Shown piece by piece: positions 1 to 17,528 of a stretch of 64,000 bases of DNA. Origin of the DNA: a virus; the IMG/VR virus record IMGVR_UViG_3300045988_074841. The stretch is one strand, 5' to 3'. Below the pieces are notes generated by a model. It was given only the letters and a program-made list of their open reading frames with translations, had not been told where the DNA came from and ran no database searches. Position numbers and translations under genes: made by a program. Position 1 is the first letter of the stretch, and each line of letters starts with the position of its first letter.

Positions 1-3000
1 CCAACTCAGAATAACGATGAGTATGAAGTTCATCCTACAAGTAATGATAGCATTGCAAATCTTACAACTAATGAAGATTTGTTTGCTAATTCTAATATTG
101 CTACTCAAGATAACGTAGGTATAACTTCTTATCCTATTGTTAGACTTACTGGTAATAATTTTGAAGTTGTTAGTCAAGGTAAACTAGGAATTGAAGATGT
201 AAAAGAAGAAGAAACTTCACAGCAAACATCTTCTACGGGGGGTCTAGAACAAACTGAACCAGTAGAATCTCAAGCAGCAACTGAACCTATTCCTGAAGTA
301 GAAGAGACTACTCCTGAAGTTGAAGAACCTAAAGTTCCTGATTTTATGGGTAATGCTTCTGACACTAAAGTCATTAGAGATGTTATTACTGAATTAAAAA
401 CTACTCCTGATTTAGATTTAGATGCTAAAGCCAAGAGTATTCTTGATGATTATGTAGCTAAAGGATATAGTGAAACTGAAACTAAAAAACAAATAGATAG
501 TGCTTTTAGACGTATTCGTAAGAGACAAGAAAAACTTATGAATAAAGAAAGTACTGTTGCTTCTGTTTATTTTAGTAGTTTTGACCAAGAAGAACGTAAT
601 GCCAAATCTAAAAATGGTAAAGCTGTAGTATTTGATGATTCTTATAAAAAAGCTGTTAGTGACCTTCTTGATGTATACGCTAAAGATGCTGAACTTCCAC
701 AAATTAATGGTAAGTATTATGGTAATCTTATGAACCTTATGGATTATATTAAGTCTGCTTATGATGATTATTCTATGGCTGACTTTATGTTTAATAGTTT
801 GTCTGCTTATCTTAATACTCCTGAAGGTCAAGCTAAATTTAATATTACTGATGCCAATGATGTTAGTAATCCTGTTGCTTTCTTAAATAACTTCCATAAA
901 TCTCAAGCTGAAAGAGATGCTGCTCTTTCTAATGGAACTGTTCATCAAGTTAATATGAATCTTTCAGATTTTGGAACTGATGAATATATGAAAGAAAGTT
1001 ATGCTGAACAAGTTAAACTTAAAAATGGCGATAAACTTACTATAGAAAGAGTTACTACAAGTAAAGGTACTAGTCGTTTAGGTATCAAATCTAACGGTAA
1101 ACTTGTTGGTAGTATATCAATTCCTTCTACAGGAGAAAGAGGAGAATATGTTCAAAAGAATGATGGACTTATTTATCATATAGATAAAGCTGATGGTTCT
1201 AAAGATGGAGCACTTAAACAAGTTCTTAAAGATATAGCTAGAAGTAAAACTCCTGAGCATGAAAAACTTAATGAAATTATTCATAAAGCTGCTTTTGATA
1301 AGTTTAACGCTGAACAGCTAGTTAATGAATTTAAGAGTAATCCTATTGTTCAAGATATGGTTAAGAATCATATGATTAATTTTGATGGAACTGGTCCTGA
1401 ATATGAAGTTGCTCTTAATGGTCTTGCTAAACTTTGGAGATATAACTATAAAGTTCTTACCGAAGGAAGGGTTAATAAGTTTACTGGTGCAGTAGTTGCT
1501 AATTCTATTGATAAATGGTTTGATACTCTCCGTGAAAGTTATAATGAAACTAGTAAATTAGATAACAATCCAAACATTGATATTGTAGCTAGTGATGTAT
1601 TTGAAGGTGAGCTTATTCGTAGTAATGATGGTACTTTTAAAAGTGATGCTGAAACTTCTCTACCTATTCAATTAGCTATCGCTAAAGATACTAAGTTTGA
1701 AATTGCTGCCAAATCTACTACTGGTGAATTTATTAATGGTATTGGAAGTAATAAGTTTCTTGTTAGTGTTGGTCGAACTTATGTTACTGTTCCTCGTAGT
1801 AACGGTACTGTAGATATTGTAAATGCTTATCCAGTGAGTTGGACAGGTGCTACATATTATACAAAAGATGACAAACAACAACAAGTTGAGACAGGTAAAG
1901 ACTTTAAGCAGCTTCAAAATGCTATAATTACTCAAATTAAAGATAGACTTGCTTCTATTAATGATGGTGATTTTGCTGAAAATAGAAATAACTTTATTGA
2001 TTTTATTGATAATCTTCTTAATATCAATAAAAATCCTATTTTCCTTAGTAAAGAACTATCTGTATTTAGAACTGCAAATATTCTTGGAATTAACTTTGGT
2101 AATAAGAATAATCAACTTCTTTTCTATAGAGATAAGAATGGTGATGGTGTAGGTCAAATAATTAATAAAGTTGATGGTAAACCTAATTATATTTCTTACA
2201 ATAGTGATTTATCTGCTGTAAGCGATAGACTTATTGAAGGAATAAAAAGTCTCAATTTCAATATTAACTTTGCTGTTTTAAAGTCTGATAATAATCATAA
2301 TATTCCTCTTCAAGGTATTACTAGTAGAACTACTGACGGTAAGTTTAAAATTACTATTCCTGAATATAAAGGGAAAAATGGTGTAAATCTTACTTATGAT
2401 AGTTTTAAAGATTTTATTCAACAAAACAATCTTCTTAGAGTTAATATGGCTCAAGAAAACGGTAGTAATATTAGAAGAACTGCTATTAATAAACAAGGAG
2501 CTAATGCTAGATTTAGTTTTCAAGTAACAAATAAACAAGAAAGCCGCCCCGTAGAAGATGTTAGTGATAGTTATATTTCTAAAGCTGATGAAATTAAATC
2601 CATTGTAACATCTGATTCTACAGATAAAGGTTTTGAAGTTGCTAGTGCTCTTTTATTAGATGATACATCTAAAGAGAAACTAAATAGTATTAAAAGTGAT
2701 AGTTCTTTACGTAAACTTTTAGCTAAAGATATTATCTTTGACGAAGAATTTATGAGTAAAGAACATGCACAAGCTAATGCTGTTTGGAGCAAAACTAAAG
2801 GTGGTAAAGTTGTTATTGGTCAGAAATTCTTAGATATGATTAATAGTAAGAAACCTGGTGAAAAAGGTAGAGCTATTAGAACTTTGATGCACGAAAATCT
2901 TCATGGTTATATTGAAGATATGGCTAATAATAAACGTCATCCTAATGCGGTTGCTAATCTTAGAAATAGAATGCAAGATATTTATGATGATTTTGCTACT

Positions 3001-3708
3001 GCTATTAATCAAGATATTAATGATTTAAAAGCAGGAAATATTGATGAGATTAAACAACGTAGACATATTCAAGATAAAGCTACTCTTGAAAAGATTAGTG
3101 AGTGGCTTAATAATGTTAATACTTTTACTGCTGAAAGTTATGCTACTCGTGAGAATCCTCAAGATGCTCTAGAAGAATTTATTGTTGAATCTCTTACCAA
3201 TGTTGATTTAATGAATTATCTTAATCAAGTTGACGCTGATGGTGGAGTAGTTAAAGGCAATACTATTTGGCAGAAAATACTCAAGTTTATTGGTGACTTG
3301 TTTGGTATTAATATTCGTCCTAATAGTCTTCGTGCTAAACAAATGGAAGCTCTTGGTGAAATATTTAAGAATAATCAAGAAGCTGAAGTTAAAGCTGAAG
3401 AAAAAGAAGAAGAAGTTACTCAACCAACAACATCTTCTACGGGGCGTATAGAAGAAGTTGAAACAGAAACAGTTGCTGATAATACTAATAGTGTTATAGA
3501 TAATGATGATGTTGGAAATGCTAATGAGGTGTTTGATATTAAGGATGAAGATGTTGATGCTGATGATGAATATGATGCTGATGAAAGTACTAGTGAAGAA
3601 GTAGCTTTCAATTCATTCAACTCAGCAATCGAATCTCTTCCGATGTCGGAACGTGCCAAATTTGCCTCTCTCGTTAGCTCTGCTGCGATTTCGATGTCTT
3701 GCAAATAG
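1..3708 (+). CDS. large virion/cargo-like protein, 5-prime partial (>1235 aa), HExxH zincin-like motif (HENLH, nt 2890-2904) and strongly acidic C-terminal tail
   Basis: Reading frame of listed ORF 79..3708 stays open back to nt 1, so the TTG at 79 is not the real start and the gene continues upstream of the window. Coding composition is uniform. It lies directly upstream of the giant RNAP gene, as cargo genes do in crAss-like phages. Confidence 0.6.
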   Translation, partial: PTQNNDEYEVHPTSNDSIANLTTNEDLFANSNIATQDNVGITSYPIVRLTGNNFEVVSQGKLGIEDVKEEETSQQTSSTGGLEQTEPVESQAATEPIPEVEETTPEVEEPKVPDFMGNASDTKVIRDVITELKTTPDLDLDAKAKSILDDYVAKGYSETETKKQIDSAFRRIRKRQEKLMNKESTVASVYFSSFDQEERNAKSKNGKAVVFDDSYKKAVSDLLDVYAKDAELPQINGKYYGNLMNLMDYIKSAYDDYSMADFMFNSLSAYLNTPEGQAKFNITDANDVSNPVAFLNNFHKSQAERDAALSNGTVHQVNMNLSDFGTDEYMKESYAEQVKLKNGDKLTIERVTTSKGTSRLGIKSNGKLVGSISIPSTGERGEYVQKNDGLIYHIDKADGSKDGALKQVLKDIARSKTPEHEKLNEIIHKAAFDKFNAEQLVNEFKSNPIVQDMVKNHMINFDGTGPEYEVALNGLAKLWRYNYKVLTEGRVNKFTGAVVANSIDKWFDTLRESYNETSKLDNNPNIDIVASDVFEGELIRSNDGTFKSDAETSLPIQLAIAKDTKFEIAAKSTTGEFINGIGSNKFLVSVGRTYVTVPRSNGTVDIVNAYPVSWTGATYYTKDDKQQQVETGKDFKQLQNAIITQIKDRLASINDGDFAENRNNFIDFIDNLLNINKNPIFLSKELSVFRTANILGINFGNKNNQLLFYRDKNGDGVGQIINKVDGKPNYISYNSDLSAVSDRLIEGIKSLNFNINFAVLKSDNNHNIPLQGITSRTTDGKFKITIPEYKGKNGVNLTYDSFKDFIQQNNLLRVNMAQENGSNIRRTAINKQGANARFSFQVTNKQESRPVEDVSDSYISKADEIKSIVTSDSTDKGFEVASALLLDDTSKEKLNSIKSDSSLRKLLAKDIIFDEEFMSKEHAQANAVWSKTKGGKVVIGQKFLDMINSKKPGEKGRAIRTLMHENLHGYIEDMANNKRHPNAVANLRNRMQDIYDDFATAINQDINDLKAGNIDEIKQRRHIQDKATLEKISEWLNNVNTFTAESYATRENPQDALEEFIVESLTNVDLMNYLNQVDADGGVVKGNTIWQKILKFIGDLFGINIRPNSLRAKQMEALGEIFKNNQEAEVKAEEKEEEVTQPTTSSTGRIEEVETETVADNTNSVIDNDDVGNANEVFDIKDEDVDADDEYDADESTSEEVAFNSFNSAIESLPMSERAKFASLVSSAAISMSCK
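229..245 (+). repeat. GC-rich motif copy TCTTCTACGGGGGGTCT (forward), in-frame in cargo gene (TSSTGGLEQ)
   Basis: direct reading of sequence. Confidence 0.8.
2544..2560 (-). repeat. GC-rich motif copy CCGCCCCGTAGAAGATG (reverse), in-frame in cargo gene (SRPVEDV)
   Basis: direct reading of sequence. Confidence 0.8.
3431..3446 (+). repeat. GC-rich motif copy CATCTTCTACGGGGCG (forward), in-frame in cargo gene (TSSTGRIEE)
   Basis: direct reading of sequence. Confidence 0.8.
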
Positions 3709-3732
3709 ATTATTCATAGAATATATTTCAGG

Positions 3733-3774
3733 GTTCTAGAGGAGAATTTAAAATCCTCTAGAACTTTAATTTTT
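3733..3774 (+). terminator. Rho-independent terminator-like hairpin between the cargo gene and the vRNAP gene
   Basis: Perfect 11-bp stem GTTCTAGAGGA/TCCTCTAGAAC with a 10-nt loop GAATTTAAAA, followed by TTTAATTTTT. It sits 25 nt after the TAG stop at 3708. Confidence 0.6.
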
Positions 3775-3800
3775 AAATAACTAATTTAATTAATAAAGTT

Positions 3801-6800
3801 ATGGCTTGTAATTTTAAAACAACAAGTGCTGGCACAAGCATTAAACGTAAGGTTGGAGCAAATAATGCTCGTTTTGTAGCGTTAATTAGTCTTATTAGTA
3901 ATCCTGAAACTGGAGGTTTTACTGATGAGTTTGTTAAGTATTATCAGAAAGTAAATCATACTGATAATATTCCTAGTGTTGATAATTCCGAAAGAGGAGT
4001 TATCGCTAAAACTGCTATCCGTTATTATAATAGTATTCACTTTGATGTTAATGCTCAAAGTACAGGTACTTATTATGATAAGGATGTAGATGCTTTCGGT
4101 TATAGTGATAGTCATGCAAAGGTATATGCTATTACTAGAGCAATTCCTAATATTATGCGTAGTATGTATGTTAGTGATATTAGAAGTGGAGAAATTGTTG
4201 ACAAGGATTCAATTCTTGGCGATTTAATTAAACGTACAAAAGTTAGGATAACTAAGGATGTTGCTGCTAATTATCTTAAAGCTATTGGTAAACCTGCAAC
4301 TAATGTTGAAGTTAATAAGATAGCTGATGCTCTTCTTAATAATAATGAAACTTATTATAAGAAAGATGAACTTATACTTGCTATAACTAAAGCTTTTGAC
4401 AAGAATGGTGATGTTCAAGTTCAAAATACTTTTGCTATTTATAAAGATATATTTAAAGATACTACTGGTAAAGATTTCTTTAATAGAGTTATTATTGCTG
4501 ACCCTATTATTGGTAATCTAAAATATAGCGATGAAACTGAATCTAGTCTTGCTGAAGCTTATGCTGAAGATTTTGATTCAGTAGATGATTCTTCTTATAA
4601 TAATAACGAAGATGAAGATGTACTTACTGTAGGTGATAGACAAGATAATACTTGGAATGATCATAGTGGTCTTGGTTCTAGTTATATGAAAGGTTTTGAC
4701 CTTGATATTCGTCTTAGTCTTTCTATGATACCTAAACTTACTAGTAATACTGTTGATACTAAGACTTTAAAGTCTGGTAAAGTAAAGGATGTTTACGATT
4801 ATGATAAAAACAATCCTACTGGTAATGTAGATTATATTGACGTAAAAGATATTATTAGTACTCTTAGTGCTAAGAAAGATGTTTCTAATCTTAATACTTT
4901 TATTGATAGTGTAAAAGAAGCTAGTAATATTCCTGGTATGGAAGGTCTTATTAAACTTTATAAAGACCTTACTTCTGATTTAGATTATGCTGCTCGTCTT
5001 TATACTCAATTCAAAACTGTAATTAACAAATATGAAACTCGTATTGCTGATGAGAATACAGCTATGAATAAGAGTAATAAGAATAGTAATGCTCAGCAAG
5101 TTCATGCTCTTAGTTTCCTTAATGATGCTAAGTTTACTCATATAAATACTGATTCTGATATTACCAATAAACTTGCTAATGAAGTAGATGAAACTATTGT
5201 AGAATATACTCAAGCTCTTGCTGCTGGCGATGAGTTTGCTTTAGACCAAGCTAAACTTTATAATACTATTGTTGATAGAATTGCTTCTCGCATTAAAGAT
5301 TATTATCCTAGTGCAGATAAAGCTTCTATTGATAATTATGTTCGTCTTGCTAATAATGGTGAAGTTGCTACCAATATGCGTTATCTTACTGATAGTCTCA
5401 GAAAGATAGCTAAAGCTTCTGATGCTACTACTTCTCAGTATACTGAAAATCGTGATGCTATTAGCGGTATTAACAAAGAAATTAGGAAACTTCAAACTAA
5501 AATTGACGCTCTCAACGAAGCTGGGGAACATAAAGGTATAGATAAAATCAATGAAGAAATAGATAAACTTGTTAGTCAAAGAGATAATATTCGATTTAGT
5601 GATTATCGTTCTCAAGATAGTATTACTCAGAGTATTGCTTTATCTGATAAACTTTATCCTTATTCTTCTGTTAAAGTTGAACTTAATTCTCGTAATGGTT
5701 TGGGTAATCTTCAATCTGATATTATCAATAGTTCCATGATTACTTATCTTCTTAAAGTACTCAATAGTCCTAAGACTACTACTGATGAATTAGGTAATAC
5801 CGCTCCTGAGTCTCTTGTTAACTTTGCTAAGTTTAAGTTTAAGAACAATCAATATAATCTTAGTAATATTCTTATTGAGACTAGAGAAAATGGTAAGATT
5901 GTAAATTATGGTCTCTTTTATTATGATGCTGACAAACAGAAATATGGTGTTACTAATTATGCTTCTGGTTTACTTAACGTTGCATTATTTAATGGAGCTG
6001 TAAAAACTGATGAAGGTACAGGTATTACTTATGCTCAAATGAGTAAAGGCGATTATGTTTATACTGCTTTTGCTAATTATTTTAATAGCGATAAAAATAT
6101 TGATGCTGATAGAGTAACTAATAGCATTCCTCTTGCTAATTACTTTATGAGAACTCCTTCTGATGCTCCTAAAACATTTGTAGTTCGTGCTCCACGTTAT
6201 CATATAACTAAGAGTAATCCAATTAGAACTGTAACAAATGCTGCTGATGTAGATAATTATATTAAGAATTATGTTGCAGAGCATATTGCTAGTATGTCTG
6301 AAGCTGCATTTAATCAAGCTAATCCTAGAGCTAAATTTATTCAACTTGAAGATAATCGTAGTGATCGTGCTCAAATTACTAGAGATTTAACTGATAATAA
6401 TATTACTCGTTCTGTATATGAGAATGAGATTATTCGTAATGATGGTAAAACTGCAACTATTGGTTATCAATTTACTGATGAAGAAGGTAATGTAAATAAA
6501 TATATTATTACCGGTTCTATTCGCCACGTAAAAGGTATGAATAAATTTGTTATTGAGAATGGTAAAGCTACTATTCTTGATAATAATGAAATGAGAGATA
6601 ATCTTCGTCCTATGATATATGATAAGTATCGTAAACAAGCTTATCGTAACGGTAGAATTGGTGATGTTCAAGTTGATTATAAAGTTAATAGAGAACATCC
6701 TATTTATAAACAATTTAGAAAGATATTTAATCAAGAGTTGACTAATATGGCTGAGGCTATTAATATGATATTCTTGACTGGCGATGATGGTGTTATTCAG

Positions 6801-9800
6801 CGTGAAGCTGATGGTAAACCTAAGTTTAATCCTAATAATGCTTTTGGATTAGATAAAGAATCTGCTCGTAGACTTTATGCTAATTATCAAACTAAAAAAG
6901 ATAAATATCTTGATTCTAATTATGGTTTAGTTGGAAATATGTTCCATAGTGATAAGTTCACTATTACTGATTATAAGACTGGTAAAATTCGTAATTATGG
7001 TCAAGAACTTCTTGATGATTATTTTGATAGTCTGTATAATGGTAGTAAAGGTGGCTTTATTCATTTTGGTTATGAGAATGGTAAGATTAAACTTAATCAT
7101 ACTAAAGACCAAGCTAAAGCTATTGATAACAAAATAGCAGAATTTATTAGTGATTATATTTATAGTTCTGCTATACGTATGGATGAATTTAAAAATCTTG
7201 ATGTAGCTGGACTTATTAATGATGATAATGTTGCTGACTTTGCTCTTAATTATCGTCTTGCTTATAATTATTTTGATGATTTATTTGAAGGTGATGATAA
7301 GTTTTATAAGTCTTCTCAAGACTTCTTGAAACGTGCTAAGGAAGGTCAAGCTAGTGGTACTCCTTATAGTACTTTCAATATTTATCAAGATGAGAATATG
7401 ATGTTGACAGACTTAAAGAAGATGAGTTATCTTAATAGTCAAGCTATTCAAGATAAACTTAATAGTCTTGGTCTTCATGTTACTCAACGTCCTGGTTTTG
7501 TTGGTATTACTATTAAGAATACTGTAAGAACTTCTCATGAAGCTTCTCAAAATGGTCCTGTTGTTCATGAACTTGCTCGTGTTTATATGAAACATGACCC
7601 TGAACTTACAGAAGATGAAGCTATTGCTAAAGCAAATAAGCATATGGAAGGTTATCAAAATACTACTGTAAACGATGCTCAATCTTATATTACTTTTGAA
7701 GAATGGATTCGTCGTGTTGCAGGTAGAGGTCAACTTAATAAATATATGCCTCTTATTGAGCGTATTATGGATAGAAGTAAACCTCTTAGAGTAGATGATA
7801 TTAAAACTTTTGTTCAAGTACAAAAGAACTTCTATTATGATATGACTTATAATGATAAGATTAATACTTATGCTCCTCGTCAAATTAAAAATGCTGAACT
7901 TGTTCTTGTACCTAGATTTATTGAAGGTACTGACCTTGAGAAAGTATACAATCTTATGAAAGACCATGGTATTGACCAACTTAATACAGAAGAGACTTCT
8001 AAAGCTGGTAAAGCTGGAGTTCTTACTTTATTTGATGAAGAAACTGGTGAAGTTACTGATACTCATATTCAAGATTTTAATAACCATGTAGAAGATTATA
8101 AAGAGACTTATTCTTATAATTTCCTTTATACTCAGCAAGAAACTCCTCAACACATGAATGCAGAAAATAAAGCTGCTATTCAAATTATGAAGAAGATTGT
8201 TGATAATATTCCTGATACTGGAACTATTGGAGAAGTTAAGAAAGAGTTTTTTAAACTTTATGTTGCTAATATTAAAGATAGTTTCAATAGTCTTGTTAAG
8301 GAACTTAATATTCCTACAAATGAAGATGGTTCTATTAAACTCGATGCTAATGGAAATATTGAAGGACTTGATATGAAACTGTTCTTCAATAAGCTTCGTA
8401 AAGAATGTCTTCGTCAAGGTCTTGATAGTAATATTCTAGAGTTCTTTACTCTTAATGAAGATAGTCCTTATACTGAACTTGGAAGAGCTAATACTGTTAT
8501 GCCTACATATATGACTAATATGATGAGTAAAGCTCAGAATGTTTGTCAGTCTATGTTTAATAATGCTATTACTCGTCAAAAGTTGCCTGGTTTTCATGCT
8601 GCTCAGGTAACTAATGTAGGTTATTCAAAGCATCTTCGTTATCATCCTGATGGTGGACGTTACATTGAAGTTCTTCTTCCTAAGAGCAACTTTGGTTTTG
8701 CTAAAAATGAAGATGGTACTTATAAAGAACCTGATGAAATTAGAGACAAAGATGGAAATCTTGTAGGTGGACTTCTTTATCAACTTCAAAGAGCTAAACT
8801 TGATACAATTATTGGTTATCGTATTCCTACTGAAGGTAAGCAATCTATATGTGCTATGAAAGTAGTTGGATTTACAGATGATGCTCAAGGTTCAACTATA
8901 GTTGTTCCTGATGATTGGGTTGCTCAAACTGGTTCTGACTTTGATATTGATTCTGTATATGGTATTCAACATAATACATATATAGATAAAGATGGAGATA
9001 TTCAAAAAGTTGCTTATAAAGAATCATTTGGTAAATTATATGACGATTATGTAAAAGAACAACTTAATGATGAAGCTAAAGATAAACTAGAAGAAGCTGT
9101 TAAAAATGGAGTTAACGAATCTACTGCTTTAGCTAATGCTGCACAAGAGGGTGGACTTCTTAGTCGTGAAGAATTTAGTAAAGCTAATAGTATTGAAGAA
9201 AAGAATAGTCGTCAAGCTCGTAACAATCGTATACTTGATGATATGCTTCGTATTCTTCAATCTGATGAAGCTTTTGAAGAGAATACTGGTCAATCTCAAT
9301 TTGAAGATATTATCAATGCACGTGATAATATTATGAATGATGTAGTTAAGAGTGTTCGTAATGGTCGTAGTTGTTATGATTTTATTGACCAAGCTGAATA
9401 TCAAGAAGATGTTATGAGTGGTGCTAAACTTAAAGCATTTAGTGTTACTCGTGATACCTTTGTTTCTATTTGCAACAAAGTTCAACCAACTATTGATAAA
9501 AATTATGCTATTAGTGCTAGATATAAAGCTACTCCAAAACAAGCTGAGGTTTTAGCTAAACGTTTTGGAGAAGATAATGTTATTTACAAAGATGGTTATG
9601 TTACAATTAGTCATACTATGATTGGTTGGTCACACGATAATCATAATGTAGATGATGCTATTCTTACTGCTTATAGTTCTGAGACTACAGCTCATATTCT
9701 TGATGCTGTAAAAAAAGGTGCTGTACCTAATGTAAATGAGTTTACTTTTGCAGTATATAAAACTTTCCCTGATGTAGGTAGTAATTATAAGACTGGTGTT

Positions 9801-12800
9801 GCATTTATGATGCACCCTGCTGTAACTCGTATAGTTAATGCTTATAATAAAGGTAAATCTGTTTATAGTGAAGATTCTGCTCAACCTATAGTTGATGCTC
9901 TTAAAGAAGTAGCTGAAGAACTCGATGTTGATAGTAGTTCTTTATATTCAGGTAAAATGGTAGTTGAAGCTATTAATGATAAACTTGGTACAAATTATAG
10001 TTTTATTAAAAACAACAATATTGTTCTTGATGAAGAGCAATTAGCTAGTGATGTAAAGAATGCAAACAATGTTTCTCTTGCTCGTGAAGTAGAGATTCTT
10101 ATGGCTTACAATGATATTAATCGTTTAGCTGATGTAATTCAGAAAACTGTAAGAGTTTGTAATCCTGATAAGTTTGGAGCTAAACAAACTATATTTGCTA
10201 CTAATGAAGTATTTGAAACTATTAAAGATATAATTAATAGTAAACAAGCTAAAGTACTTAGTAAGAATGATATTCCTTTCCTTGAAAGTATTTATCCTGG
10301 ACTTATTAAAGATGGTGTTGTAGATAAAGATAATTATGTAAAAGATACTCATGAATCTGCTTATCCTTCTCTTAATGCTTTCTTAAAGTATGCTTCAGTT
10401 ACTAGTACTGTAGTTAATAGCATGCTTTTTGAAACTCAAAATTCTGCTTTTGTAACTACTATTAAAGCTCTTAGTAAAATGCTTCCTACTCCTCGTAAAC
10501 TTACTGAGAAAGAATATAATGATTATGAGAAGTATGTTATTGGTGCTGCTTATAATAATGCTGACGGAATTAGATTAGGTTATACTATCAACTCTTCTAC
10601 GGGGCGTCTTGAATCAACTAAAACAAGTGATTTACAAGAGCGTCTTCGTATTTATGGATTTAGTGGTAGTCCAGTATTTCATTTTGATGTTGAAGATATT
10701 ACTGAACCAACTCAAGATGAAATTGATGCTTGGTCTAAACTTACTCCTGCTCAAAAAGTTGCTTGGTTACAAAGTAAAGCAGAAGATGGTGGTATATTTA
10801 GTAAACTTAAAGTTGACCTTCAAGATAATTATCGTGTTGGTAATAAAGAATGTGCTGCTCAATCTATTCGTTTTAATGATGATAATGTAGATACTGAAAC
10901 TGCTTACAATCTTTTTGAAACTGCTACTAAGAGTCAGAATCCTCTTGTTAAACTTGCAGCTATAGACCTTATTAAATATGCGTTTGTAGTTGAAGGTTTC
11001 AAGATGCGTCGTAATGGTATTAATAAGATTATTAAGAATAGTACTCTTCGTGATGATACTTTGTTTGCTAATCAAGATGGAGAACCTACTAGTCTTCTTA
11101 GTCAAATTGATGCTAATTTTAAGCATATTACTTATGATGATTATCGTGATGATTATTTAAGAAGTCATTCTGATAATGGTATGGTTCCAAAAAGAACTGT
11201 AAAGAAGAAAAGAGTAGGTAAAATTTGGGTTAATGAACTTAGTGCTCCTGATGGAGTTATAACTCTTAATGTTCCTTCTCGTAGAAATGATATTACAGAA
11301 GCAGATATTAATGATGAATTTGCTGCTACTAAAACTATTGCAGAAGAGACGGAAATCCGCCCCGTAGAAGATGTAGTAGATAATAAACTTCAAGTTGTTC
11401 AAGATAATACTACTGCTCCAGATGATACTAAACTTGCTGTTAAGTATGGTATTTATAATGCTTGGACTGATAGAGTTAATCCTTATGTAAAACTTACTTT
11501 TAAGAATCGTGGTGTTAATACTACGAATCTTTATAAGACTGTTCGTCATGGTGATATAATATTTGCTTATCCTGTTAGTATGCTTGAGGAAAACGAACAT
11601 GGTATTGTTTCTGTTAATCAAGCTAATAATACTCTTTATAGTGAGATGTATTATAGAACTATTATTGATAATAAACTTCAAGGTAATCAACTTACTAAAG
11701 AAGAAGCAGATAAACTTCGTAAAGAATACGCCAATGAACGAGCTATTTCTTCTAAAAGTAGAGTTAATACTGGTTTTGATATTAATAAAGATAGAACTAC
11801 TGGCGATATAGGTGGTGCTCGTGATGCTTATAGTAAAATTATTAATCTTATTAAGAATGATGCTAAAGGTATTCAAATTATAAACAATAGGTATCTTTAT
11901 AATCGTGTTAGTGAAGGATTTGGTAATTTCCAAATTATTCATGATGTAATTGATGGTAATGAAGTTACTAAGAAAATTGCTTTTGCTAAAGAAACAAAAG
12001 TAATATTTGATTCTGAAGGTAAAGTAATTCCTTATCCTGTTAAAGTTATTCAGATTATTCCTTCTACTAATGATAAAGAAAGTACATCTGTTGAATATAA
12101 TTTTGACATGTTTACTGATATTAATCGTAGAGCACATGAAGGTGATGTCAATGCTTATCGTGAAGTTCAGTTTATGAATAATAATGGTTTTGAGAATGTT
12201 AGTACTGATTATACAAATATGTCTCCTAAACTTTATGAAGCTATTGATAGATTCACTAGTGCTACAGCTAAGAAACTTATCAGTGATGCTGACCAATTCT
12301 ATAAAAAAGAAGATGGAACTTATGCTTCTATATTTGCTCCTGAAACTATAGAAATGATTCGTAATAATCCTAGTGAGCAAAGACGTTTTCAAAAGTTACT
12401 TCTTGATACAGATAGTATTATTAATAAATATGGTACTATATTTGATGTTGTAGTTGACGAAAATGAGAATCCTGAAGTAATTGATTTTATTAATCATATT
12501 AAGAAAACTATTGGAGATTTACGTAACAAACTTAATCTTAGTACTCTTAATGAAAGATTTGCTAGAGAAGTTGTTGCTAAATGGTCTAATGACCCTAATA
12601 TTCAAAATGGTTTAGTTGATATTTGTAATGGTTATCATGCTGTTACTTGGTGTGATGCTTGGATTGGAGATTTACAAGATACTGGTAATAGTCTTATTCA
12701 AAATATTAGCAAACATATAGTTGATGATATTAGTGCTAAAGATATGCAAGCTGCTAAAGATGCTCGTGAATTTGAAAAAGCTATTAAAGCTCTAGGTCAC

Positions 12801-15800
12801 ATAGATTGGGATAAACTTGTTGATAAGAACGGTAAACTTATTAGAGATTATACTGACAAATTTGTTGAAGATTTAGATACTCTTAGAAATAAAGTAGATG
12901 AAGCTCGTAAAGATGTCATTAATAATCCTATGGCTTATCTTAAAGCTAAGCATGAATATGATGCTTTCAAGCTTGCTCATCTTAATCAACAATTTAAGGA
13001 TGAGTATTATAAAGCTATGTATGATAATGATGATTACATGCTTAATACTGCTCCTACTATTTTTGCTGAATATACAAAACTTAGAGAGCAAATTAGAAAT
13101 ATTAATCGTCTTCGTATTAGTGGTGTTCTTAGTCCTGAAAATGAAGAAGAATATCGTAAACTTAGAAGAAGTATTAATCAACTTGAGTCTACAATAAATT
13201 TTGATGATGGTACTGAGAAACCTATTTATGATGAAACTAATCCTATTCCAGGTACTAAAGGTTTCGATGAAGAAGGTAAACCTATAATTGTAGATAAGGC
13301 TAAATATGATGAAGCTGTATTAAACTCTCAAGGAGCTGCTATGAAACTTAATCAATATCTCAAACGCAAACGTGATATTAATGAAGAATATAATGATACT
13401 CAAGTTAAGGATAGTTTTGAAGAAGAACTTGATAAGAGACTTGATATTATTAAGCGAGCTGAGAAACGTGATGCTTTTGGTAATAAACAAGTTTCTGATG
13501 AAGTTCTTGCTAATGACGAAAAGTATCAAAGAGCTAAAGAATGGCTTGAGCAAAATGCTACTTGGCATGTAGACCCTAAAGTTAGTGATGAAATTGCTGT
13601 AGCTTATGGTGTTCTTTCTAAAGGTAGAGTACAAAAGAATAATCAAATAACTTATAAGGCTAAACTTATCAAAATTAAACTTGCTAATGGTGAGAAAGTT
13701 TATGATAGTAAAGGTCGTATTCGTGGCGATATATTTACTGAAGAAGAACAAGAAGCTATAAGAAAAGATGAAGCTGGTCGTTATAATAATACTATTTATT
13801 CTGCTGGTAATGAACAAATATTAATTAATAATGCTCCTGAACAAAAGCAAGCTCTTCCTGCTGTAGTACAAAGAATGCTCACTTCTAATAGCAAAGAAGG
13901 TAAAGCTAACGTTGAATATCTTAAATTAGTTAATGAAATTAATGAAATTCTTCGTCCTTATTATGATACTACTAAGAAAGAAGTTAATACTATAACTGAT
14001 AGACATCAAATTAGTATTGAAGAACTTCATAAACTTGCTGATTTGTATGAGAAACTTCGTAATACAAAAAAGACTATAGTTAATGAAGATATACCTGGTA
14101 ATGGTTCTGCTGTTGGTAGTTTTATTCGTAAGTTTATGCATACTGAATATAGTTCTAAGTTTGATATTGAATACAGTAAAGCTAAAACTATTGGTGGTGA
14201 ATATCTTAAAGCTTGGGAAGATGCTAATATGGAATATGATTTTGAATATGATGAAAAAGGTCATATTGTTAAAGACTCAGATGGTAATTATGTATATGAT
14301 AAATCAGTTCGTCTTCCTAATCGTTTTCTTTATGGTACTCTTACTCTTAAAGATGAGTTCTATACTGGTATGAAGAATCAGAAAGTAGCTAAAGACTTGC
14401 GTAAAGAAGCAGAGATTAAAACTAAAGCTCTTGCTACTATTAACGAATATCTTGAAACTACTACAACTCCTTATTATAGTGATGCTATGGCTGAGGCTAG
14501 AGCTAAAGGTAAAGAAGAGTTTGATAAGTGGTTTACTCGTAATCATGTATGGAATGTTTATACTCATAAGTTTGACCCAATAGGTATTTGGCAAAAGACT
14601 AGTATTAAACCTAATTACGCTAATGGTACTTGGGCTGCTAATTATAATCAGTTAGATATTGTTCCTAAAGAAGAATATCGTAATCCTGATTATAAAGAGA
14701 ATACTACTCAAGCTGAGAATTTTAAACGTGGTATAAACGATGAAAAATATGTTAACAATGTAACTCTTAGTGACAATGAAAAACAAGCTAAGAAACTTAT
14801 TGAAACAACATTAGATAAGATTGTTAGAGATAAAACTAGTCGTCGTATTATTAGTCAAGGTTTTATTCCTATTACTGCAAAAGAAGCTGACCATGACTTT
14901 AAATGGTTTGGTAAACAAATAGCTGAATTTGCTGGTTGGAATGCTAATATTAGCTCTGTTGGTAAGAATAGTCTTCATGCTAATATGAATTATTCTACTG
15001 ATAAAACTCCAGTGCTTCCTATGATTGGTAGAGAATTTACTAATAAAAATAGTGAAGACATTAATAAAATTAAAGCTGCTGAGCCAAAGAGAGATCAATA
15101 TACTACTGATGAAGAGTATAATAAAGCTATGACTGAACATAAAGCTAGACTTGATGCTGCTGAAAAGAATAATAAAGCAATACATCAATCTCTTGTTAAT
15201 AGAGATTTTGTTTCTAGTATTAGTCAGTTTATTAGACTTGCTGGTCATCAAAATGCTGTTCAAGATAATAAGTATCTCTTCTATTATGGTCAAAATATGA
15301 TTAAAGCTACTCCTGTACTTGATGATAATATAGGTTTTAGTAATCTCAGAAAAGATATTAATAGAAGTACTACTGATGTTACTCGTTATGCTGAAAAGAC
15401 TTATGATGAAAGACTTTATGGTCAGTTTACTAATTGGGGTAATAGACTTATCTACGATAGATATAAACTTCCTAATAATAAACTTACCAAAGCTGCTAAT
15501 ATTGCACAAAGTCTTACTAGTGCTAAATTTATGATGTTAAATATTACTGGTGCTATTGGTAACGTTACTGTTGGTCGTAGTGGTATTTTTGCTGAACATA
15601 TAGCTAAAGCTTATTTTAGTACTTCTGCTTGGAATAAAGCTAAAACTATGTGGTATGGTGCTTCTTTATCTTTCCTAAGAGGAATGACTAGAGAAGATAG
15701 TACTAGTCTTGCTGATGCTATTGTTAAATTTATGAATGTTGTAGATTTCGATGAAGTACTTGGTAGACCTAGTGGTAGTTTTAAAGCTAGTGATGCCATT

Positions 15801-17174
15801 AATCGTCTTAGAAACCTTATGTATTCTCCTAATGCTATGGGTGAACATCACATGCAGAATAGTGCTATGTTTGCTATGATGTTTGAGAATAGAATTGTTC
15901 CTGTAGATGATTATCGAAATAAAGGTAGACTTCCTTATCAAGCTATGACTTGGTCTCAATATAAAGTTGCTTCTCACGAAGAAGCTATGAGACAACTTAT
16001 TGCTGGTACTCCTCTTGCTGCTCAATTTGAGAAATTTGTAAATGATATAAAGTCTGACCCAAATCAACTTAAAGAATATGCTAGAGGAAGAAGAGATTTA
16101 GCTAATGAATTTAAGAACATTTTCCTTAACAATAAACAAAGTAAAGATTTTGTTGCTAAACGTAAGGAACTTGAAGCTAAAGCTAAGAAACAATTTGAAG
16201 CTAATCCTACTCTTATGGAACAGCTTGATTTGGTTGATGGTAGACTAGGTTTTAAAGATGGTTCTCTTATGGAACAACTTTCTAAACAAAGTACTAATGG
16301 AGAAATAAATGATGCTTATGCTCTTCTTGGAGAGTTCAAAGGTAAAGTTATTGCTGTTAATAAAGAAATACATGGTGTATATGATAGACTTGGTGCTGCT
16401 CAACTTGAAAAATATTGGTGGGGTAGTCTTGTTATGCAATATCATAAACATATATATCCAGGTATTCTTAAACATTGGAGAAGAAAAGGTTATTTTAATG
16501 AACAAACAGGCGATAGTCGTGTAGGTTGTGGTCCTGCTCTTATGGATTTCCTTACAATGCCTATTCGTCAATATAATGAAAGACATAAACTTTTAGATAA
16601 TAAACAGCTTGAAGCACTTGAAGGTACTCAAAATCTTTTTGCTGCTTATGTAAACTTTGCTGAGAATATTCGAGTTAATTGGGAAGCATTACCTGAATAT
16701 CAGAAAGCTGCTATTCGTAGAACAGCTGGTGATGTATTTGGTGCTTTATCTTCTATTATGGTTGCTATCGGTACTAATATAGCTTGGGATGATAAGGATA
16801 AAGATAAAATGCTTCTTCCTAATCTTATGCTTTATAGTGCAGACAAACTTGCAACTGAAAGTATGATGTATAATCCAATATTCCTTCCAAACAATGCTAA
16901 AGATCTTTGGAGTTCTCCTATTGCAATGATGAATATGCCTAATGATATTATCAATAGTCTTAATCTTGTAGCAAATGCTATGTTTGATGATGAATTTGAT
17001 TATAATTATACTACTGGTCGTTACAAAGGTGAGAATAAATTTAAAGTTAAACTTATGAGACAAGTTCCTATTTATAGAGCTTATAATAATCTTGCTACTA
17101 TTGATAAGAGTAATAGTTATTATCATTATGGTAAAAATATACTTGGATTTGTTCCTACATCATTTGATAAATAA
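3801..17174 (+). CDS. giant virion-packaged RNA polymerase-like protein (crAss-like vRNAP), 4457 aa
   Basis: Uninterrupted 13.4-kb ORF. Aspartate triad DFDID at aa 1713-1717 (nt 8937-8951) resembles the DxDxD metal-binding motif of crAss-like phage virion RNAP (phi14:2 gp66 type double-psi beta-barrel). All antisense ORFs inside it are AT-rich artefacts. Confidence 0.6.
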   Translation: MACNFKTTSAGTSIKRKVGANNARFVALISLISNPETGGFTDEFVKYYQKVNHTDNIPSVDNSERGVIAKTAIRYYNSIHFDVNAQSTGTYYDKDVDAFGYSDSHAKVYAITRAIPNIMRSMYVSDIRSGEIVDKDSILGDLIKRTKVRITKDVAANYLKAIGKPATNVEVNKIADALLNNNETYYKKDELILAITKAFDKNGDVQVQNTFAIYKDIFKDTTGKDFFNRVIIADPIIGNLKYSDETESSLAEAYAEDFDSVDDSSYNNNEDEDVLTVGDRQDNTWNDHSGLGSSYMKGFDLDIRLSLSMIPKLTSNTVDTKTLKSGKVKDVYDYDKNNPTGNVDYIDVKDIISTLSAKKDVSNLNTFIDSVKEASNIPGMEGLIKLYKDLTSDLDYAARLYTQFKTVINKYETRIADENTAMNKSNKNSNAQQVHALSFLNDAKFTHINTDSDITNKLANEVDETIVEYTQALAAGDEFALDQAKLYNTIVDRIASRIKDYYPSADKASIDNYVRLANNGEVATNMRYLTDSLRKIAKASDATTSQYTENRDAISGINKEIRKLQTKIDALNEAGEHKGIDKINEEIDKLVSQRDNIRFSDYRSQDSITQSIALSDKLYPYSSVKVELNSRNGLGNLQSDIINSSMITYLLKVLNSPKTTTDELGNTAPESLVNFAKFKFKNNQYNLSNILIETRENGKIVNYGLFYYDADKQKYGVTNYASGLLNVALFNGAVKTDEGTGITYAQMSKGDYVYTAFANYFNSDKNIDADRVTNSIPLANYFMRTPSDAPKTFVVRAPRYHITKSNPIRTVTNAADVDNYIKNYVAEHIASMSEAAFNQANPRAKFIQLEDNRSDRAQITRDLTDNNITRSVYENEIIRNDGKTATIGYQFTDEEGNVNKYIITGSIRHVKGMNKFVIENGKATILDNNEMRDNLRPMIYDKYRKQAYRNGRIGDVQVDYKVNREHPIYKQFRKIFNQELTNMAEAINMIFLTGDDGVIQREADGKPKFNPNNAFGLDKESARRLYANYQTKKDKYLDSNYGLVGNMFHSDKFTITDYKTGKIRNYGQELLDDYFDSLYNGSKGGFIHFGYENGKIKLNHTKDQAKAIDNKIAEFISDYIYSSAIRMDEFKNLDVAGLINDDNVADFALNYRLAYNYFDDLFEGDDKFYKSSQDFLKRAKEGQASGTPYSTFNIYQDENMMLTDLKKMSYLNSQAIQDKLNSLGLHVTQRPGFVGITIKNTVRTSHEASQNGPVVHELARVYMKHDPELTEDEAIAKANKHMEGYQNTTVNDAQSYITFEEWIRRVAGRGQLNKYMPLIERIMDRSKPLRVDDIKTFVQVQKNFYYDMTYNDKINTYAPRQIKNAELVLVPRFIEGTDLEKVYNLMKDHGIDQLNTEETSKAGKAGVLTLFDEETGEVTDTHIQDFNNHVEDYKETYSYNFLYTQQETPQHMNAENKAAIQIMKKIVDNIPDTGTIGEVKKEFFKLYVANIKDSFNSLVKELNIPTNEDGSIKLDANGNIEGLDMKLFFNKLRKECLRQGLDSNILEFFTLNEDSPYTELGRANTVMPTYMTNMMSKAQNVCQSMFNNAITRQKLPGFHAAQVTNVGYSKHLRYHPDGGRYIEVLLPKSNFGFAKNEDGTYKEPDEIRDKDGNLVGGLLYQLQRAKLDTIIGYRIPTEGKQSICAMKVVGFTDDAQGSTIVVPDDWVAQTGSDFDIDSVYGIQHNTYIDKDGDIQKVAYKESFGKLYDDYVKEQLNDEAKDKLEEAVKNGVNESTALANAAQEGGLLSREEFSKANSIEEKNSRQARNNRILDDMLRILQSDEAFEENTGQSQFEDIINARDNIMNDVVKSVRNGRSCYDFIDQAEYQEDVMSGAKLKAFSVTRDTFVSICNKVQPTIDKNYAISARYKATPKQAEVLAKRFGEDNVIYKDGYVTISHTMIGWSHDNHNVDDAILTAYSSETTAHILDAVKKGAVPNVNEFTFAVYKTFPDVGSNYKTGVAFMMHPAVTRIVNAYNKGKSVYSEDSAQPIVDALKEVAEELDVDSSSLYSGKMVVEAINDKLGTNYSFIKNNNIVLDEEQLASDVKNANNVSLAREVEILMAYNDINRLADVIQKTVRVCNPDKFGAKQTIFATNEVFETIKDIINSKQAKVLSKNDIPFLESIYPGLIKDGVVDKDNYVKDTHESAYPSLNAFLKYASVTSTVVNSMLFETQNSAFVTTIKALSKMLPTPRKLTEKEYNDYEKYVIGAAYNNADGIRLGYTINSSTGRLESTKTSDLQERLRIYGFSGSPVFHFDVEDITEPTQDEIDAWSKLTPAQKVAWLQSKAEDGGIFSKLKVDLQDNYRVGNKECAAQSIRFNDDNVDTETAYNLFETATKSQNPLVKLAAIDLIKYAFVVEGFKMRRNGINKIIKNSTLRDDTLFANQDGEPTSLLSQIDANFKHITYDDYRDDYLRSHSDNGMVPKRTVKKKRVGKIWVNELSAPDGVITLNVPSRRNDITEADINDEFAATKTIAEETEIRPVEDVVDNKLQVVQDNTTAPDDTKLAVKYGIYNAWTDRVNPYVKLTFKNRGVNTTNLYKTVRHGDIIFAYPVSMLEENEHGIVSVNQANNTLYSEMYYRTIIDNKLQGNQLTKEEADKLRKEYANERAISSKSRVNTGFDINKDRTTGDIGGARDAYSKIINLIKNDAKGIQIINNRYLYNRVSEGFGNFQIIHDVIDGNEVTKKIAFAKETKVIFDSEGKVIPYPVKVIQIIPSTNDKESTSVEYNFDMFTDINRRAHEGDVNAYREVQFMNNNGFENVSTDYTNMSPKLYEAIDRFTSATAKKLISDADQFYKKEDGTYASIFAPETIEMIRNNPSEQRRFQKLLLDTDSIINKYGTIFDVVVDENENPEVIDFINHIKKTIGDLRNKLNLSTLNERFAREVVAKWSNDPNIQNGLVDICNGYHAVTWCDAWIGDLQDTGNSLIQNISKHIVDDISAKDMQAAKDAREFEKAIKALGHIDWDKLVDKNGKLIRDYTDKFVEDLDTLRNKVDEARKDVINNPMAYLKAKHEYDAFKLAHLNQQFKDEYYKAMYDNDDYMLNTAPTIFAEYTKLREQIRNINRLRISGVLSPENEEEYRKLRRSINQLESTINFDDGTEKPIYDETNPIPGTKGFDEEGKPIIVDKAKYDEAVLNSQGAAMKLNQYLKRKRDINEEYNDTQVKDSFEEELDKRLDIIKRAEKRDAFGNKQVSDEVLANDEKYQRAKEWLEQNATWHVDPKVSDEIAVAYGVLSKGRVQKNNQITYKAKLIKIKLANGEKVYDSKGRIRGDIFTEEEQEAIRKDEAGRYNNTIYSAGNEQILINNAPEQKQALPAVVQRMLTSNSKEGKANVEYLKLVNEINEILRPYYDTTKKEVNTITDRHQISIEELHKLADLYEKLRNTKKTIVNEDIPGNGSAVGSFIRKFMHTEYSSKFDIEYSKAKTIGGEYLKAWEDANMEYDFEYDEKGHIVKDSDGNYVYDKSVRLPNRFLYGTLTLKDEFYTGMKNQKVAKDLRKEAEIKTKALATINEYLETTTTPYYSDAMAEARAKGKEEFDKWFTRNHVWNVYTHKFDPIGIWQKTSIKPNYANGTWAANYNQLDIVPKEEYRNPDYKENTTQAENFKRGINDEKYVNNVTLSDNEKQAKKLIETTLDKIVRDKTSRRIISQGFIPITAKEADHDFKWFGKQIAEFAGWNANISSVGKNSLHANMNYSTDKTPVLPMIGREFTNKNSEDINKIKAAEPKRDQYTTDEEYNKAMTEHKARLDAAEKNNKAIHQSLVNRDFVSSISQFIRLAGHQNAVQDNKYLFYYGQNMIKATPVLDDNIGFSNLRKDINRSTTDVTRYAEKTYDERLYGQFTNWGNRLIYDRYKLPNNKLTKAANIAQSLTSAKFMMLNITGAIGNVTVGRSGIFAEHIAKAYFSTSAWNKAKTMWYGASLSFLRGMTREDSTSLADAIVKFMNVVDFDEVLGRPSGSFKASDAINRLRNLMYSPNAMGEHHMQNSAMFAMMFENRIVPVDDYRNKGRLPYQAMTWSQYKVASHEEAMRQLIAGTPLAAQFEKFVNDIKSDPNQLKEYARGRRDLANEFKNIFLNNKQSKDFVAKRKELEAKAKKQFEANPTLMEQLDLVDGRLGFKDGSLMEQLSKQSTNGEINDAYALLGEFKGKVIAVNKEIHGVYDRLGAAQLEKYWWGSLVMQYHKHIYPGILKHWRRKGYFNEQTGDSRVGCGPALMDFLTMPIRQYNERHKLLDNKQLEALEGTQNLFAAYVNFAENIRVNWEALPEYQKAAIRRTAGDVFGALSSIMVAIGTNIAWDDKDKDKMLLPNLMLYSADKLATESMMYNPIFLPNNAKDLWSSPIAMMNMPNDIINSLNLVANAMFDDEFDYNYTTGRYKGENKFKVKLMRQVPIYRAYNNLATIDKSNSYYHYGKNILGFVPTSFDK
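10592..10606 (+). repeat. GC-rich motif copy CTCTTCTACGGGGCG (forward), in-frame in vRNAP (NSSTGRLES)
   Basis: direct reading of sequence. Confidence 0.8.
11357..11373 (-). repeat. GC-rich motif copy CCGCCCCGTAGAAGATG (reverse), in-frame in vRNAP (IRPVEDV)
   Basis: direct reading of sequence. Confidence 0.8.
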
Positions 17175-17228: not shown

Positions 17229-17298
17229 ACCTTTATCTGTTGGAGATATTAATATTAATAGTATCTTTGCAACAGATAAAGGTTTTCCTGTTTTTGCC
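17229..17298 (+). terminator. strong hairpin (14-bp perfect stem, 27-nt loop) followed by T-tract, between the vRNAP stop and the tRNA
   Basis: ACCTTTATCTGTTG (17229-17242) pairs perfectly with CAACAGATAAAGGT (17270-17283). It is followed by TTTCCTGTTTTTGCC. Confidence 0.5.
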
Positions 17299-17331: not shown

Positions 17332-17402
17332 TGCTCTATGGTGTAATGGTAGCACTACAGATTTTGGTTCTGTCAGAGCAGGTTCGAATCCTGCTAGAGT
17401 AA
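17332..17402 (+). tRNA. tRNA-Gln (anticodon UUG)
   Basis: Cloverleaf folded by hand. Acceptor stem TGCTCTA/TAGAGTA (one G-U), D-stem GTGT/GCAC with a GG-containing D-loop, anticodon stem ACAGA/TCTGT with loop TTTTGGT (anticodon TTG), T-arm GCAGG-TTCGAAT-CCTGC. CCA is not encoded. Confidence 0.7.
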
Positions 17403-17487
17403 CAAATGCTATAAGTTCTAAACTACTTGCTAAATTAATTGTTTATAGGGTTTAAATGTGGTTTAAGGTGATATTTATAAAGTTCTT

Positions 17488-17528
17488 GAGCTAGATAGTC
17501 GTGATGACTGTCTAGCTCTTTTTCGTTT
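17488..17528 (+). terminator. Rho-independent terminator downstream of the tRNA
   Basis: 11-bp stem GAGCTAGATAG/CTGTCTAGCTC (one G-U) with a 9-nt loop, followed by TTTTTCGTTT. Confidence 0.6.

Follow-up and report, generated by a model that had tools for sequence, protein, structure and literature searches.

Hairpins with a role in transcription or in mRNA processing are known from several phage systems. Intrinsic terminators, which in their leaky form occur inside operons in phage late regions and in Bacteroides, usually have a loop of 3–8 nt. The intercistronic hairpins of phage T7 are sites of RNase III, and sites of this enzyme are usually about 20 bp long with internal loops. In phage lambda, the boxB hairpins of nutL and nutR have a 5-bp stem and a GNRA-like pentaloop, lie in the sense orientation in both operons and are essential. 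The promoters recognized by the giant virion RNA polymerase of phage N4 are themselves hairpins, with 5–7-bp stems and 3-nt loops, and several of them lie ahead of early genes; the N4 enzyme is not related to the polymerase of the crAss type. Furthermore, T4-type phages contain PeSLs, motifs that occur in many copies per genome, have a recognizable early promoter and flank shuffled small ORFs (PMC2839356, PMC4122927).

The phage considered here belongs to an abundant group of uncultured crAss-like phages of the human gut, a group with almost uncharted transcription signals. A preprint on phi14:2 described host-type middle and late promoters upstream of the polymerase homologues and of the tRNAs in some crAss-like phages and reported no common motif at the early virion-polymerase transcripts (10.1101/2020.03.07.982082). 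The consensus of the Bacteroidetes sigma factor, sigma(ABfr), is TTTG at –33 and TAnnTTTG at –7 (PMC7366714). In the literature we found no description of terminators in crAss-like phages, nor of the hairpin element that is the subject of this work.

The DNA analysed here, hereafter the window, is a stretch of 64,000 nt with a GC content of 30%. It is part of a crAss-like phage whose closest GenBank relative is the uncultured phage cr8_1 (Crassvirales, Intestiviridae, Fohxhuevirus), which matches the window at about 70% identity in the tRNA region only. On the plus strand, a gene for a protein with an acidic C-terminus (346–3708, stop codon TAG at 3706–3708; 1120–1209 aa) precedes a 4457-aa ORF (3801–17174, ATG at 3801), which is followed at its 3′ side by a tRNA-Gln (17332–17403). 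The giant ORF has a DFDID motif at residue 1713 and is syntenic with the giant gene of cr8_1; it is this motif, together with gene size and synteny, that suggests the label of virion RNA polymerase (vRNAP), as well as that of “cargo” gene, given by position only, for its upstream neighbor. In fact, sequence searches of PHROGs, Pfam and the PDB with both genes gave no family match. The genes of the minus strand span from about 48.9 kb down to 18020, where an 85-aa lipoprotein-like ORF (18020–18277) is the last gene of the module, and the sign of the GC skew is reversed near 18 kb. Between the cargo gene and the polymerase gene there is a hairpin, site A, which on comparative grounds we regard as probably a leaky intrinsic terminator (an attenuator, or a 3′ stabilizer) setting the dosage of the polymerase.

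The hairpin between the cargo and polymerase genes

Site A (3733–3764, plus strand) is a perfect 11-bp stem with five G-C pairs, closed by a 10-nt A/U-rich loop, in which the 5′ arm GTTCTAGAGGA (3733–3743) and the 3′ arm TCCTCTAGAAC (3754–3764) enclose the loop GAATTTAAAA (3744–3753). Directly 3′ of the stem lies the interrupted T-rich tract TTTAATTTTT (3765–3774), and by G-U and A-U pairs the stem can be extended to 3730–3767. The hairpin is on the same strand as both genes, 24 nt past the stop codon of the upstream gene and 36 nt before the ATG of the polymerase gene; the first interval is occupied by the block ATTATTCATAGAATATATTTCAGG (3709–3732), moderately conserved and partly dispensable, and the second by an A/T-rich leader. 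The plus-strand RNA is predicted to fold with –19.6 kcal/mol in its context (z = –4.4; none of 200 shuffles was equally stable) and with –15.9 kcal/mol when the hairpin is taken by itself. The window has about a dozen perfect hairpins with stems of 9 bp or more, site A among them, and the covariance models of Rfam 15, run over 3650–3850, gave nothing at E ≤ 1.

Relatives were gathered by an exact-pattern scan of IMG/VR, by protein-anchored scans with the N-terminus of the polymerase and by a scan of JGI/ENA metagenomes, which together recovered about 100 related contigs from the human gut. Their flanking genes define five classes, namely A1 (window-like), A2, two variants of A4 and the cr8_1 type, between which the N-termini of the polymerases are only about 30% identical in amino acid sequence. 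A hairpin of the A type occupies the same spot in four lineages (about 100 contigs), whose flanking genes are about 30% identical in protein; the lack of conservation in related phages, which the earlier note had named as a ground for refutation, is thus not what is seen at this site. Between the window and an A2 genome, the flanking coding DNA is about 50% identical, and within it an island of 104 nt (3689–3792) reaches 86.5% identity and includes a 32-nt hairpin with no difference at all. In the A4 class the identity does not extend beyond the hairpin, a fact that speaks against the recent transfer of a larger patch.

The variation found at the locus is unevenly distributed among its parts. 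In the about 100 contigs of the four lineages the 10-bp core of the stem is unchanged, except for a single C-to-T substitution, by which a pair becomes G-U. The loop tolerates variants (GAAATTAAAA, CATTTTAAAAG and GAATTTAAAT), and the T-run 3′ of the A-type hairpin reads TTTACTTTTT, TTTATTGTTT, TTTTTTGTTT or TTTTTCGTTT; the cr8 type has TTTTT, and the tract is rich in T in each of the five lineages. In locus L184 and one locus identical to it, a 14-nt part of the stop-to-hairpin block is missing and the hairpin is intact. The cr8_1 type has, at the position of site A, an unrelated canonical hairpin (CTCGCTGAGA-N8-TCTCAGCGAG) followed by TTTTT, with a spacer of only 8 nt from the stop codon; the edges of the locus are homologous to those of the other classes, with GATTAATC after the stop codon and AAATAACTTAAT before the ATG. 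The stems are polymorphic at just two points, one in the A type, where TCCTC is changed to TCTTC, and one in the cr8 type, where GAGA is changed to GGGA; both changes give a G-U pair in the RNA of the plus strand, where the RNA of the minus strand would have an A-C mismatch.

The stem pattern GTTCTAGAGG-N(8-16)-CCTCTAGAAC was found once per contig, at site A only, in 26 IMG/VR contigs after a scan of 2.9 million viral contigs, a result that excludes a multi-copy or mobile element; matches to the core alone number two at most per IMG/VR contig. The wider search for the core that the earlier note had proposed was productive in relatives, at site A, and gave no copy besides sites A and B in the window at up to three mismatches. 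In a bacterial collection of 596 Gb the stem pattern had five sporadic matches in unrelated bacteria and none in Bacteroidales, which rules out a host origin of the stem. Searches of INPHARED gave no match by blastn with site A and, by tblastn with the N-terminus of the polymerase, one record, which begins at the gene and hence is without the upstream region. Module swapping at the hairpin is also excluded, because each allele of the upstream gene is always found with the same allele of the polymerase (about 130 loci). All that was seen are short patchy conversions near the stop codon, at L093, L135 and L136.

Transcription across site A

Three defining features of an intrinsic terminator are recognizable at site A: a stable stem containing G-C pairs, a U-rich tract and a position 3′ of a gene in the sense orientation. 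As to maintenance of the structure in evolution, the stem offers no covariation, and the signs in favor are the G-U-only polymorphisms and the unrelated hairpin of the cr8_1 type. The standard terminators of this phage have stems of 12–14 bp, GNRA-type tetraloops and runs of T5–T8, from which site A differs by its loop and by its interrupted T-run. Terminator strength was scored by our own implementation of the d’Aubenton-Carafa formula, an E. coli-derived metric applied here to a Bacteroidales system, and the variants of site A obtained borderline d-scores of –6.5 to +24, the cr8-type hairpin +8, the terminators at operon ends +23 to +49, and site B –46 to –92 on the two strands. The tail score of site A (3.4–5.1, vs. 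4.3–6.0 for the operon-end terminators) is moderate because the T-run is interrupted. A borderline d-score fits a weak terminator. Terminator-like hairpins inside operons are present at two other places in the window: at 18324–18297 on the minus strand, 16 nt before the ATG of the 85-aa ORF and in the same operon, and at 58219–58248 on the plus strand, just ahead of the downstream gene of the same operon.

The –7 box of the host consensus, the evident promoter signal of this phage, recurs in the window as TATCTTTG at the intergenic positions 17262, 20051, 20209, 34587, 45014 and 47062, and it is absent from the 36 nt between the hairpin and the polymerase ATG; in particular, such a box precedes the tRNA but not the polymerase gene. 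Since no promoter fits the 36-nt leader, the polymerase gene would have to be reached by read-through past the hairpin.

The alternative that site A is itself a promoter, either of the sigma(ABfr) type, in which case the polymerase mRNA would begin with the hairpin, or an N4-style hairpin promoter for an injected virion polymerase, receives next to no credence from these data. The first form could appeal to the sequence cTTGc-N19-TAtaTTTc just upstream of the hairpin, in which TAtaTTTC of the stop-to-hairpin block resembles the –7 box, and to the middle and late promoters reported upstream of polymerase homologues in some crAss-like phages (10.1101/2020.03.07.982082). However, the final G of the box is absent in all relatives, and the A4 class, which reads TAATAATTC and AACAATTC here, has no such motif; part of the block is deleted in L184, where the hairpin is kept; the spacer of the cr8 type leaves just 8 nt between stop codon and hairpin; and genuine TATCTTTG boxes are found elsewhere in the window. 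A host promoter at site A is rejected on these grounds, that is, a single imperfect motif, its lack of conservation and the partial deletion of the block. A generic sigma-70 scan was uninformative, with 105 promoter-like sites vs. 110 expected. As for the N4-style form, no common motif was reported for the early virion-polymerase transcripts of phi14:2 (10.1101/2020.03.07.982082), and site A, with its 11-bp stem and 10-nt loop, is a single copy placed ahead of a virion-protein gene in a structural operon; the geometry of stem and loop, the copy number and the class of gene rule this form out.

The proposal of the earlier note that the upstream copy acts as a terminator or attenuator for the polymerase gene is therefore supported by comparison of relatives: a hairpin with a T-run stands at the same spot in five lineages, the stem polymorphisms are compatible with G-U pairing on the sense strand only, and downstream there is neither room nor consensus for a promoter. 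From the observed anatomy and pattern of conservation we infer termination, read-through and an effect on dosage, which may be connected as follows. The hairpin would form in the sense transcript of the structural operon, between the two cistrons, and with its T-rich run would work as an intrinsic terminator that is weak and leaky. The majority of the host RNA polymerases would halt at site A, or the upstream mRNA would acquire a protective 3′ hairpin, and a minority would read through the 36-nt leader into the 13-kb gene of the virion RNA polymerase. The outcome would be a dosage of the polymerase kept below that of the upstream virion protein and, if this is true, the hairpin is a control point for a very large and costly polymerase gene with respect to the virion protein that precedes it.

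The partial copy at site B

According to the earlier note, a shorter copy of the element shared a 15-mer with site A, more than chance would give. The shared stretch is real and longer than that: the 27-mer AGAGGAGAATTTAAANTCCTCNAGAAC agrees at 25 of 27 bases between 3738–3764 and 17958–17984, both on the plus strand. In dinucleotide shuffles 0.00 matches are expected and none of 100 shuffles had two; blastn-short aligned the same 27 nt (92.6% identity, E = 1.7e-5) as the sole significant similarity between the two sites. The repeat is accepted on the strength of these two results; the 14-mer core alone, with two mismatches allowed, is not significant.

Site B, in the allele present in the window (B1; 17958–17984, plus strand), is a partial direct-repeat copy of site A, with GAGGAGAATTTAAATTCCTC located at 17959–17978. 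Its stem is of 5–6 bp and it has no T-tract. The predicted fold is weak (z = –1.3 on the plus strand and –0.9 on the minus strand), and as a terminator it offers, on either strand, neither a stem beyond 5–6 bp nor a T-run. The sequence AGAAC of the 3′ arm is kept, although it is unpaired there. Around site B, Rfam reported only the tRNA-Gln at the family threshold, with four other matches far below theirs.

The site is 35 nt past the stop codon of the 85-aa minus-strand ORF, and probably inside its 3′ untranslated region. Between the tRNA-Gln and site B there are two convergent terminators, both canonical: one on the plus strand (17488–17518), after the tRNA-Gln, which is the true end of the plus-strand unit, and one on the minus strand (17597–17568), with a 13-bp stem, a GTGA loop and T8, which ends the minus-strand unit. 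They are conserved with compensatory changes, and by their arrangement transcription of site B would come from the minus strand and give an RNA complementary to that of site A.

Past the stop codon of the 85-aa ORF, close relatives have one of two alleles: B1, with the element, in 9 of 31 related IMG/VR contigs, and B2, the majority form, which is found also in cr8_1, is 27 nt shorter and reads ...ACAGAGGATTTCAAAATGTAGGATGTGCCATATA. The extra DNA of B1 extends approximately over 17964–17993 (plus strand), its exact alignment to B2 being ambiguous. The 3′ arm is missing from cr8_1 and from the three most divergent loci (L077–L079, the outgroup), and because these most divergent loci are without it, B2 is probably the ancestral form. 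B2 already has AGAGGA and TTTnAAAAT, a microhomology at which the copying of site A could have started; one natural variant of site A, with ...AAAT in its loop, differs from B1 at a single base of the 27. Among the B1 copies there are mutations: a G-U change in L050 and a disrupted 5′ arm in L072. B1 may then have arisen as a partial copy of site A, inserted at a variable place of the 3′ untranslated region of the minus-strand module. The pre-existing AGAGGA...TTTnAAA microhomology would probably have served an illegitimate recombination or a gene conversion, and the allele, which would have no required role, would later have spread among strains by recombination. The polymorphism itself is observed directly, and copying from A to B is the direction that the comparison suggests.

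The possibility that the two copies act as a pair, either as boundaries or sites of recombination on the two sides of the polymerase-tRNA segment, or through an antisense B1 RNA that opens the terminator of site A, was weighed by scoring both sites in 29 IMG/VR contigs and in the cr8_1 record. All four combinations were found: the A-type hairpin with B1 in 7 genomes and with B2 in 17, and the cr8-type hairpin with B1 in 2 and with B2 in 4 (three contigs and cr8_1). The type of site A and the allele of site B assort independently (Fisher p = 1.0), B1 being absent from 17 of the 24 genomes with the A hairpin and present in two genomes without it. A pair would be in keeping with the direct repeat, with its 25 of 27 common bases, with the minus-strand transcription implied for site B, which would make the two RNAs complementary, and with a predicted duplex of –38 kcal/mol vs. 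–15 ± 3.7 for shuffled sequences and –23 for allele B2. However, complementarity is automatic for a direct repeat read in opposite directions, the mutations of B1 in L050 and L072 affect its stem, and the hybrid A/B junction that a deletion between the repeats would produce occurs in none of the 31 occurrences of the core in IMG/VR. Deletion or recombination between the direct repeats is rejected on this last count, and a required antisense function is unlikely because the copies do not co-occur; taken as a whole, joint action of the copies deserves very little confidence.

Given all four combinations and the lack of any association, the layout with a copy at both ends is a trait of some strains and not a conserved design. 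The earlier note had described the element as conserved at both ends of the vRNAP-tRNA unit, and in this respect it does not hold, since B1 is a minority allele without association with site A (the Fisher test given above) and without a T-tract, and is disrupted in one relative. More generally, apparently paired repeats in one genome can be strain-level accidents in highly mosaic phages.

The invariant stem and comparison with known systems

The two convergent terminators serve as controls for the way in which a hairpin evolves in these genomes. Between the window and contig 3300012344_000018 they show three and four compensatory double changes, plus two to three one-sided ones, and the stem of site A shows none that is compensatory, having lost only its apical pair. 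Overall, the stem of site A has no covariation and hardly varies: its polymorphisms are limited to G-U changes, and in the cr8_1 type it is replaced as a whole by an unrelated hairpin with T5. Because compensatory changes are found in the control terminators and none at site A, the stem of the latter appears constrained in sequence and not in structure alone. Selection on structure only does not readily explain a stem frozen across lineages in which the adjacent genes have diverged nearly to saturation, and this hints at an added sequence-specific constraint. Recognition of the sequence by a protein, a ribonuclease or a DNA-binding dimer, all forms taken together, is in our view possible, though well short of probable.

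The main form of this idea, near to the processing site and the protein-binding hairpin that the earlier note had named as alternatives, is that site A is an mRNA recognition hairpin for a phage or host protein: an antiterminator, a regulator of translation or stability, or an endoribonuclease of the RNase III/E type that would cut the upstream message apart from that of the polymerase. Read-through or processing would then be regulated; by itself this form is conceivable but rather unlikely. It would account for a 10-bp core identical in four lineages with polymerase N-termini about 30% and flanking DNA about 50% identical, for the contrast with the three to four compensatory changes of each control terminator, for the confinement of identity to the hairpin in A4, and for an A/U-rich 10-nt loop unlike the GNRA loops of the terminators of the phage. 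On the other hand, the loop tolerates changes and no candidate factor was identified; furthermore, the cr8_1 type has a hairpin of unrelated sequence, and yet its replication module and the rest of its genome are close to those of the A-type genomes, from which it follows that a shared trans-acting factor is not obligatory.

The same invariance could reflect a double-stranded DNA operator, in which the inverted repeat TCTAGAGGA-N10-TCCTCTAGA would bind a dimeric regulator gating transcription of the polymerase gene. This would agree with the perfect palindromic layout, with conservation at the level of sequence and with the retention at site B of the unpaired AGAAC. Nevertheless, the polymorphisms are exactly those that an RNA helix tolerates as G-U pairs on the sense strand, the T-run is always 3′ of the hairpin, a sister lineage has an unrelated hairpin with T5 at the same position, and matches to the half-site TCTAGAGGA are not in excess in the window (21 vs. 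17.4 expected), so that an operator seems highly unlikely. A composite switch, in which a phage-encoded or host factor would recognize the invariant GTTCTAGAGG/CCTCTAGAAC and so set the time or the dose of transcription of the 13-kb polymerase gene and, in strains with B1, an antisense RNA from the 3′ untranslated region would open the hairpin in trans, is improbable as well. If any feature of the locus could indicate a regulator not yet described, it is the frozen sequence of the stem.

Compared with the systems described at the beginning, site A resembles each in part. With the N4 virion polymerase promoters it has in common a conserved hairpin in a phage packaging a giant virion RNA polymerase. 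Its likeness to the PeSLs of T4-type phages lies in a short, conserved intergenic motif, similar to a promoter or a terminator, between highly divergent genes of mosaic genomes, and in the evidence of a piece copied to a second intergenic site (PMC2839356, PMC4122927). A cassette of the PeSL type is nonetheless excluded, as the element of site A is present in one or two copies, has no promoter and shows no hybrid combinations of flanks in about 130 loci. In lambda, two units of opposite transcription likewise each have a boxB hairpin, at nutL and at nutR, and the two are identical except for one base of the loop; the RNA of site B, however, would be the complement, and the site is polymorphic and missing from many genomes. 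The RNase III hairpins of T7 are similar as conserved hairpins between cistrons, and cleavage could leave a stabilizing 3′ stem on the upstream message; site A differs by its stem of 11–14 bp followed by a T-run. The practical value of the locus is modest: it provides a defined, conserved cis-element that can be tested in Bacteroides reporter systems.

Functionally, site A is closest to the leaky intra-operon intrinsic terminators of phage late operons and of Bacteroides. It has in common with them a sense stem-loop with a U-run after a stop codon, a downstream gene without a promoter of its own, changes tolerated as G-U pairs and replacement by an unrelated hairpin in a sister lineage, and it differs from them by the 10-nt A/U-rich loop, the interrupted U-run and the frozen sequence of the stem. 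It is, in conclusion, an element of an ordinary kind with a modest twist.

Divergence of the upstream virion gene and the polymerase N-terminus

The upstream virion gene (346-3708, plus strand) and the N-terminal part of the virion RNA polymerase-like gene (3801 to ~7000, plus strand) occur in at least five allelic classes, which share only about 30% amino-acid identity with one another, as documented at the related loci L026, L096, L097 and L001. The replication modules of the genomes carrying these classes are 87-96% identical at the DNA level, and the C-terminal regions of the polymerase are about 81% identical across genomes with different N-terminal classes. The region is one of mosaicism or of extreme local divergence.

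A hairpin downstream of the polymerase gene, and a repeated 14-mer

On the 3' side of the polymerase gene, at 17230-17286, lies a 13-bp hairpin (CCTTTATCTGTTG / CAACAGATAAAGG) followed by TTTT. Since its 27-nt loop holds a –7 box (the Bacteroidetes promoter element, consensus TAnnTTTG), here TATCTTTG at 17262-17269 and upstream of tRNA-Gln, the element looks like a promoter nested within a terminator. The nearest GenBank relative, the uncultured crAss-like phage cr8_1, keeps the hairpin with two compensatory pair changes.

The window also carries 20 matches to the 14-mer CCGCCCCGTARAAG at up to three mismatches, nine of them exact, against 0.63 expected. The copies, ten of which lie at 2544+, 3434–, 11357+, 17176+, 20311–, 24651+, 27832–, 30694+, 35505– and 45042–, are found on both strands and in intergenic as well as coding DNA, with an extended consensus of roughly tctaNCCGCCCCGTAGAAGatgt. 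The 14-mer is G+C-rich in a genome of 30% GC, and it is also present in cr8_1, 3' of the polymerase stop codon.

The end of the minus-strand module

The last gene of the minus-strand module is an 85-aa ORF (18020-18277, minus strand) with a lipoprotein-like signal (…AGLGAC…), for which a family search gave no match; a terminator-like hairpin lies upstream, 16 nt from its ATG. A non-coding stretch of about 420 nt (17600-18020, minus strand) separates this ORF from the minus-strand terminator. It shows block-wise conservation among relatives, has no match in an Rfam search, and may encode either a non-coding RNA or a long 3' UTR. The stretch contains the palindrome CTGAATAAYTATTCAG (17922-17937) and the hairpins GTGGGAAACTCCCAC and CAGCAGCGGCTG; of these features, the most divergent loci (L078 and L079) keep the palindrome alone.

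Canonical terminators

The canonical terminators in the window have a recognisable style, in which stems of 12-14 bp with GNRA-type loops (GTGA, GAAA) precede a T-rich run; the cleanest examples have T5-T8. They are located at 17488-17518+, 17597-17568–, 18324-18297–, 44340-44311–, 45318-45289– and 58219-58248+, and several are intra-operon, just upstream of the next gene. A weak, sub-threshold Rfam match to the Bacteroides sRNA BTnc231 spans the convergent pair (17466-17598, plus strand); it scores 26.5 bits (E = 0.004), where the family's gathering score is 80.4, and probably reflects terminator-like structure only.
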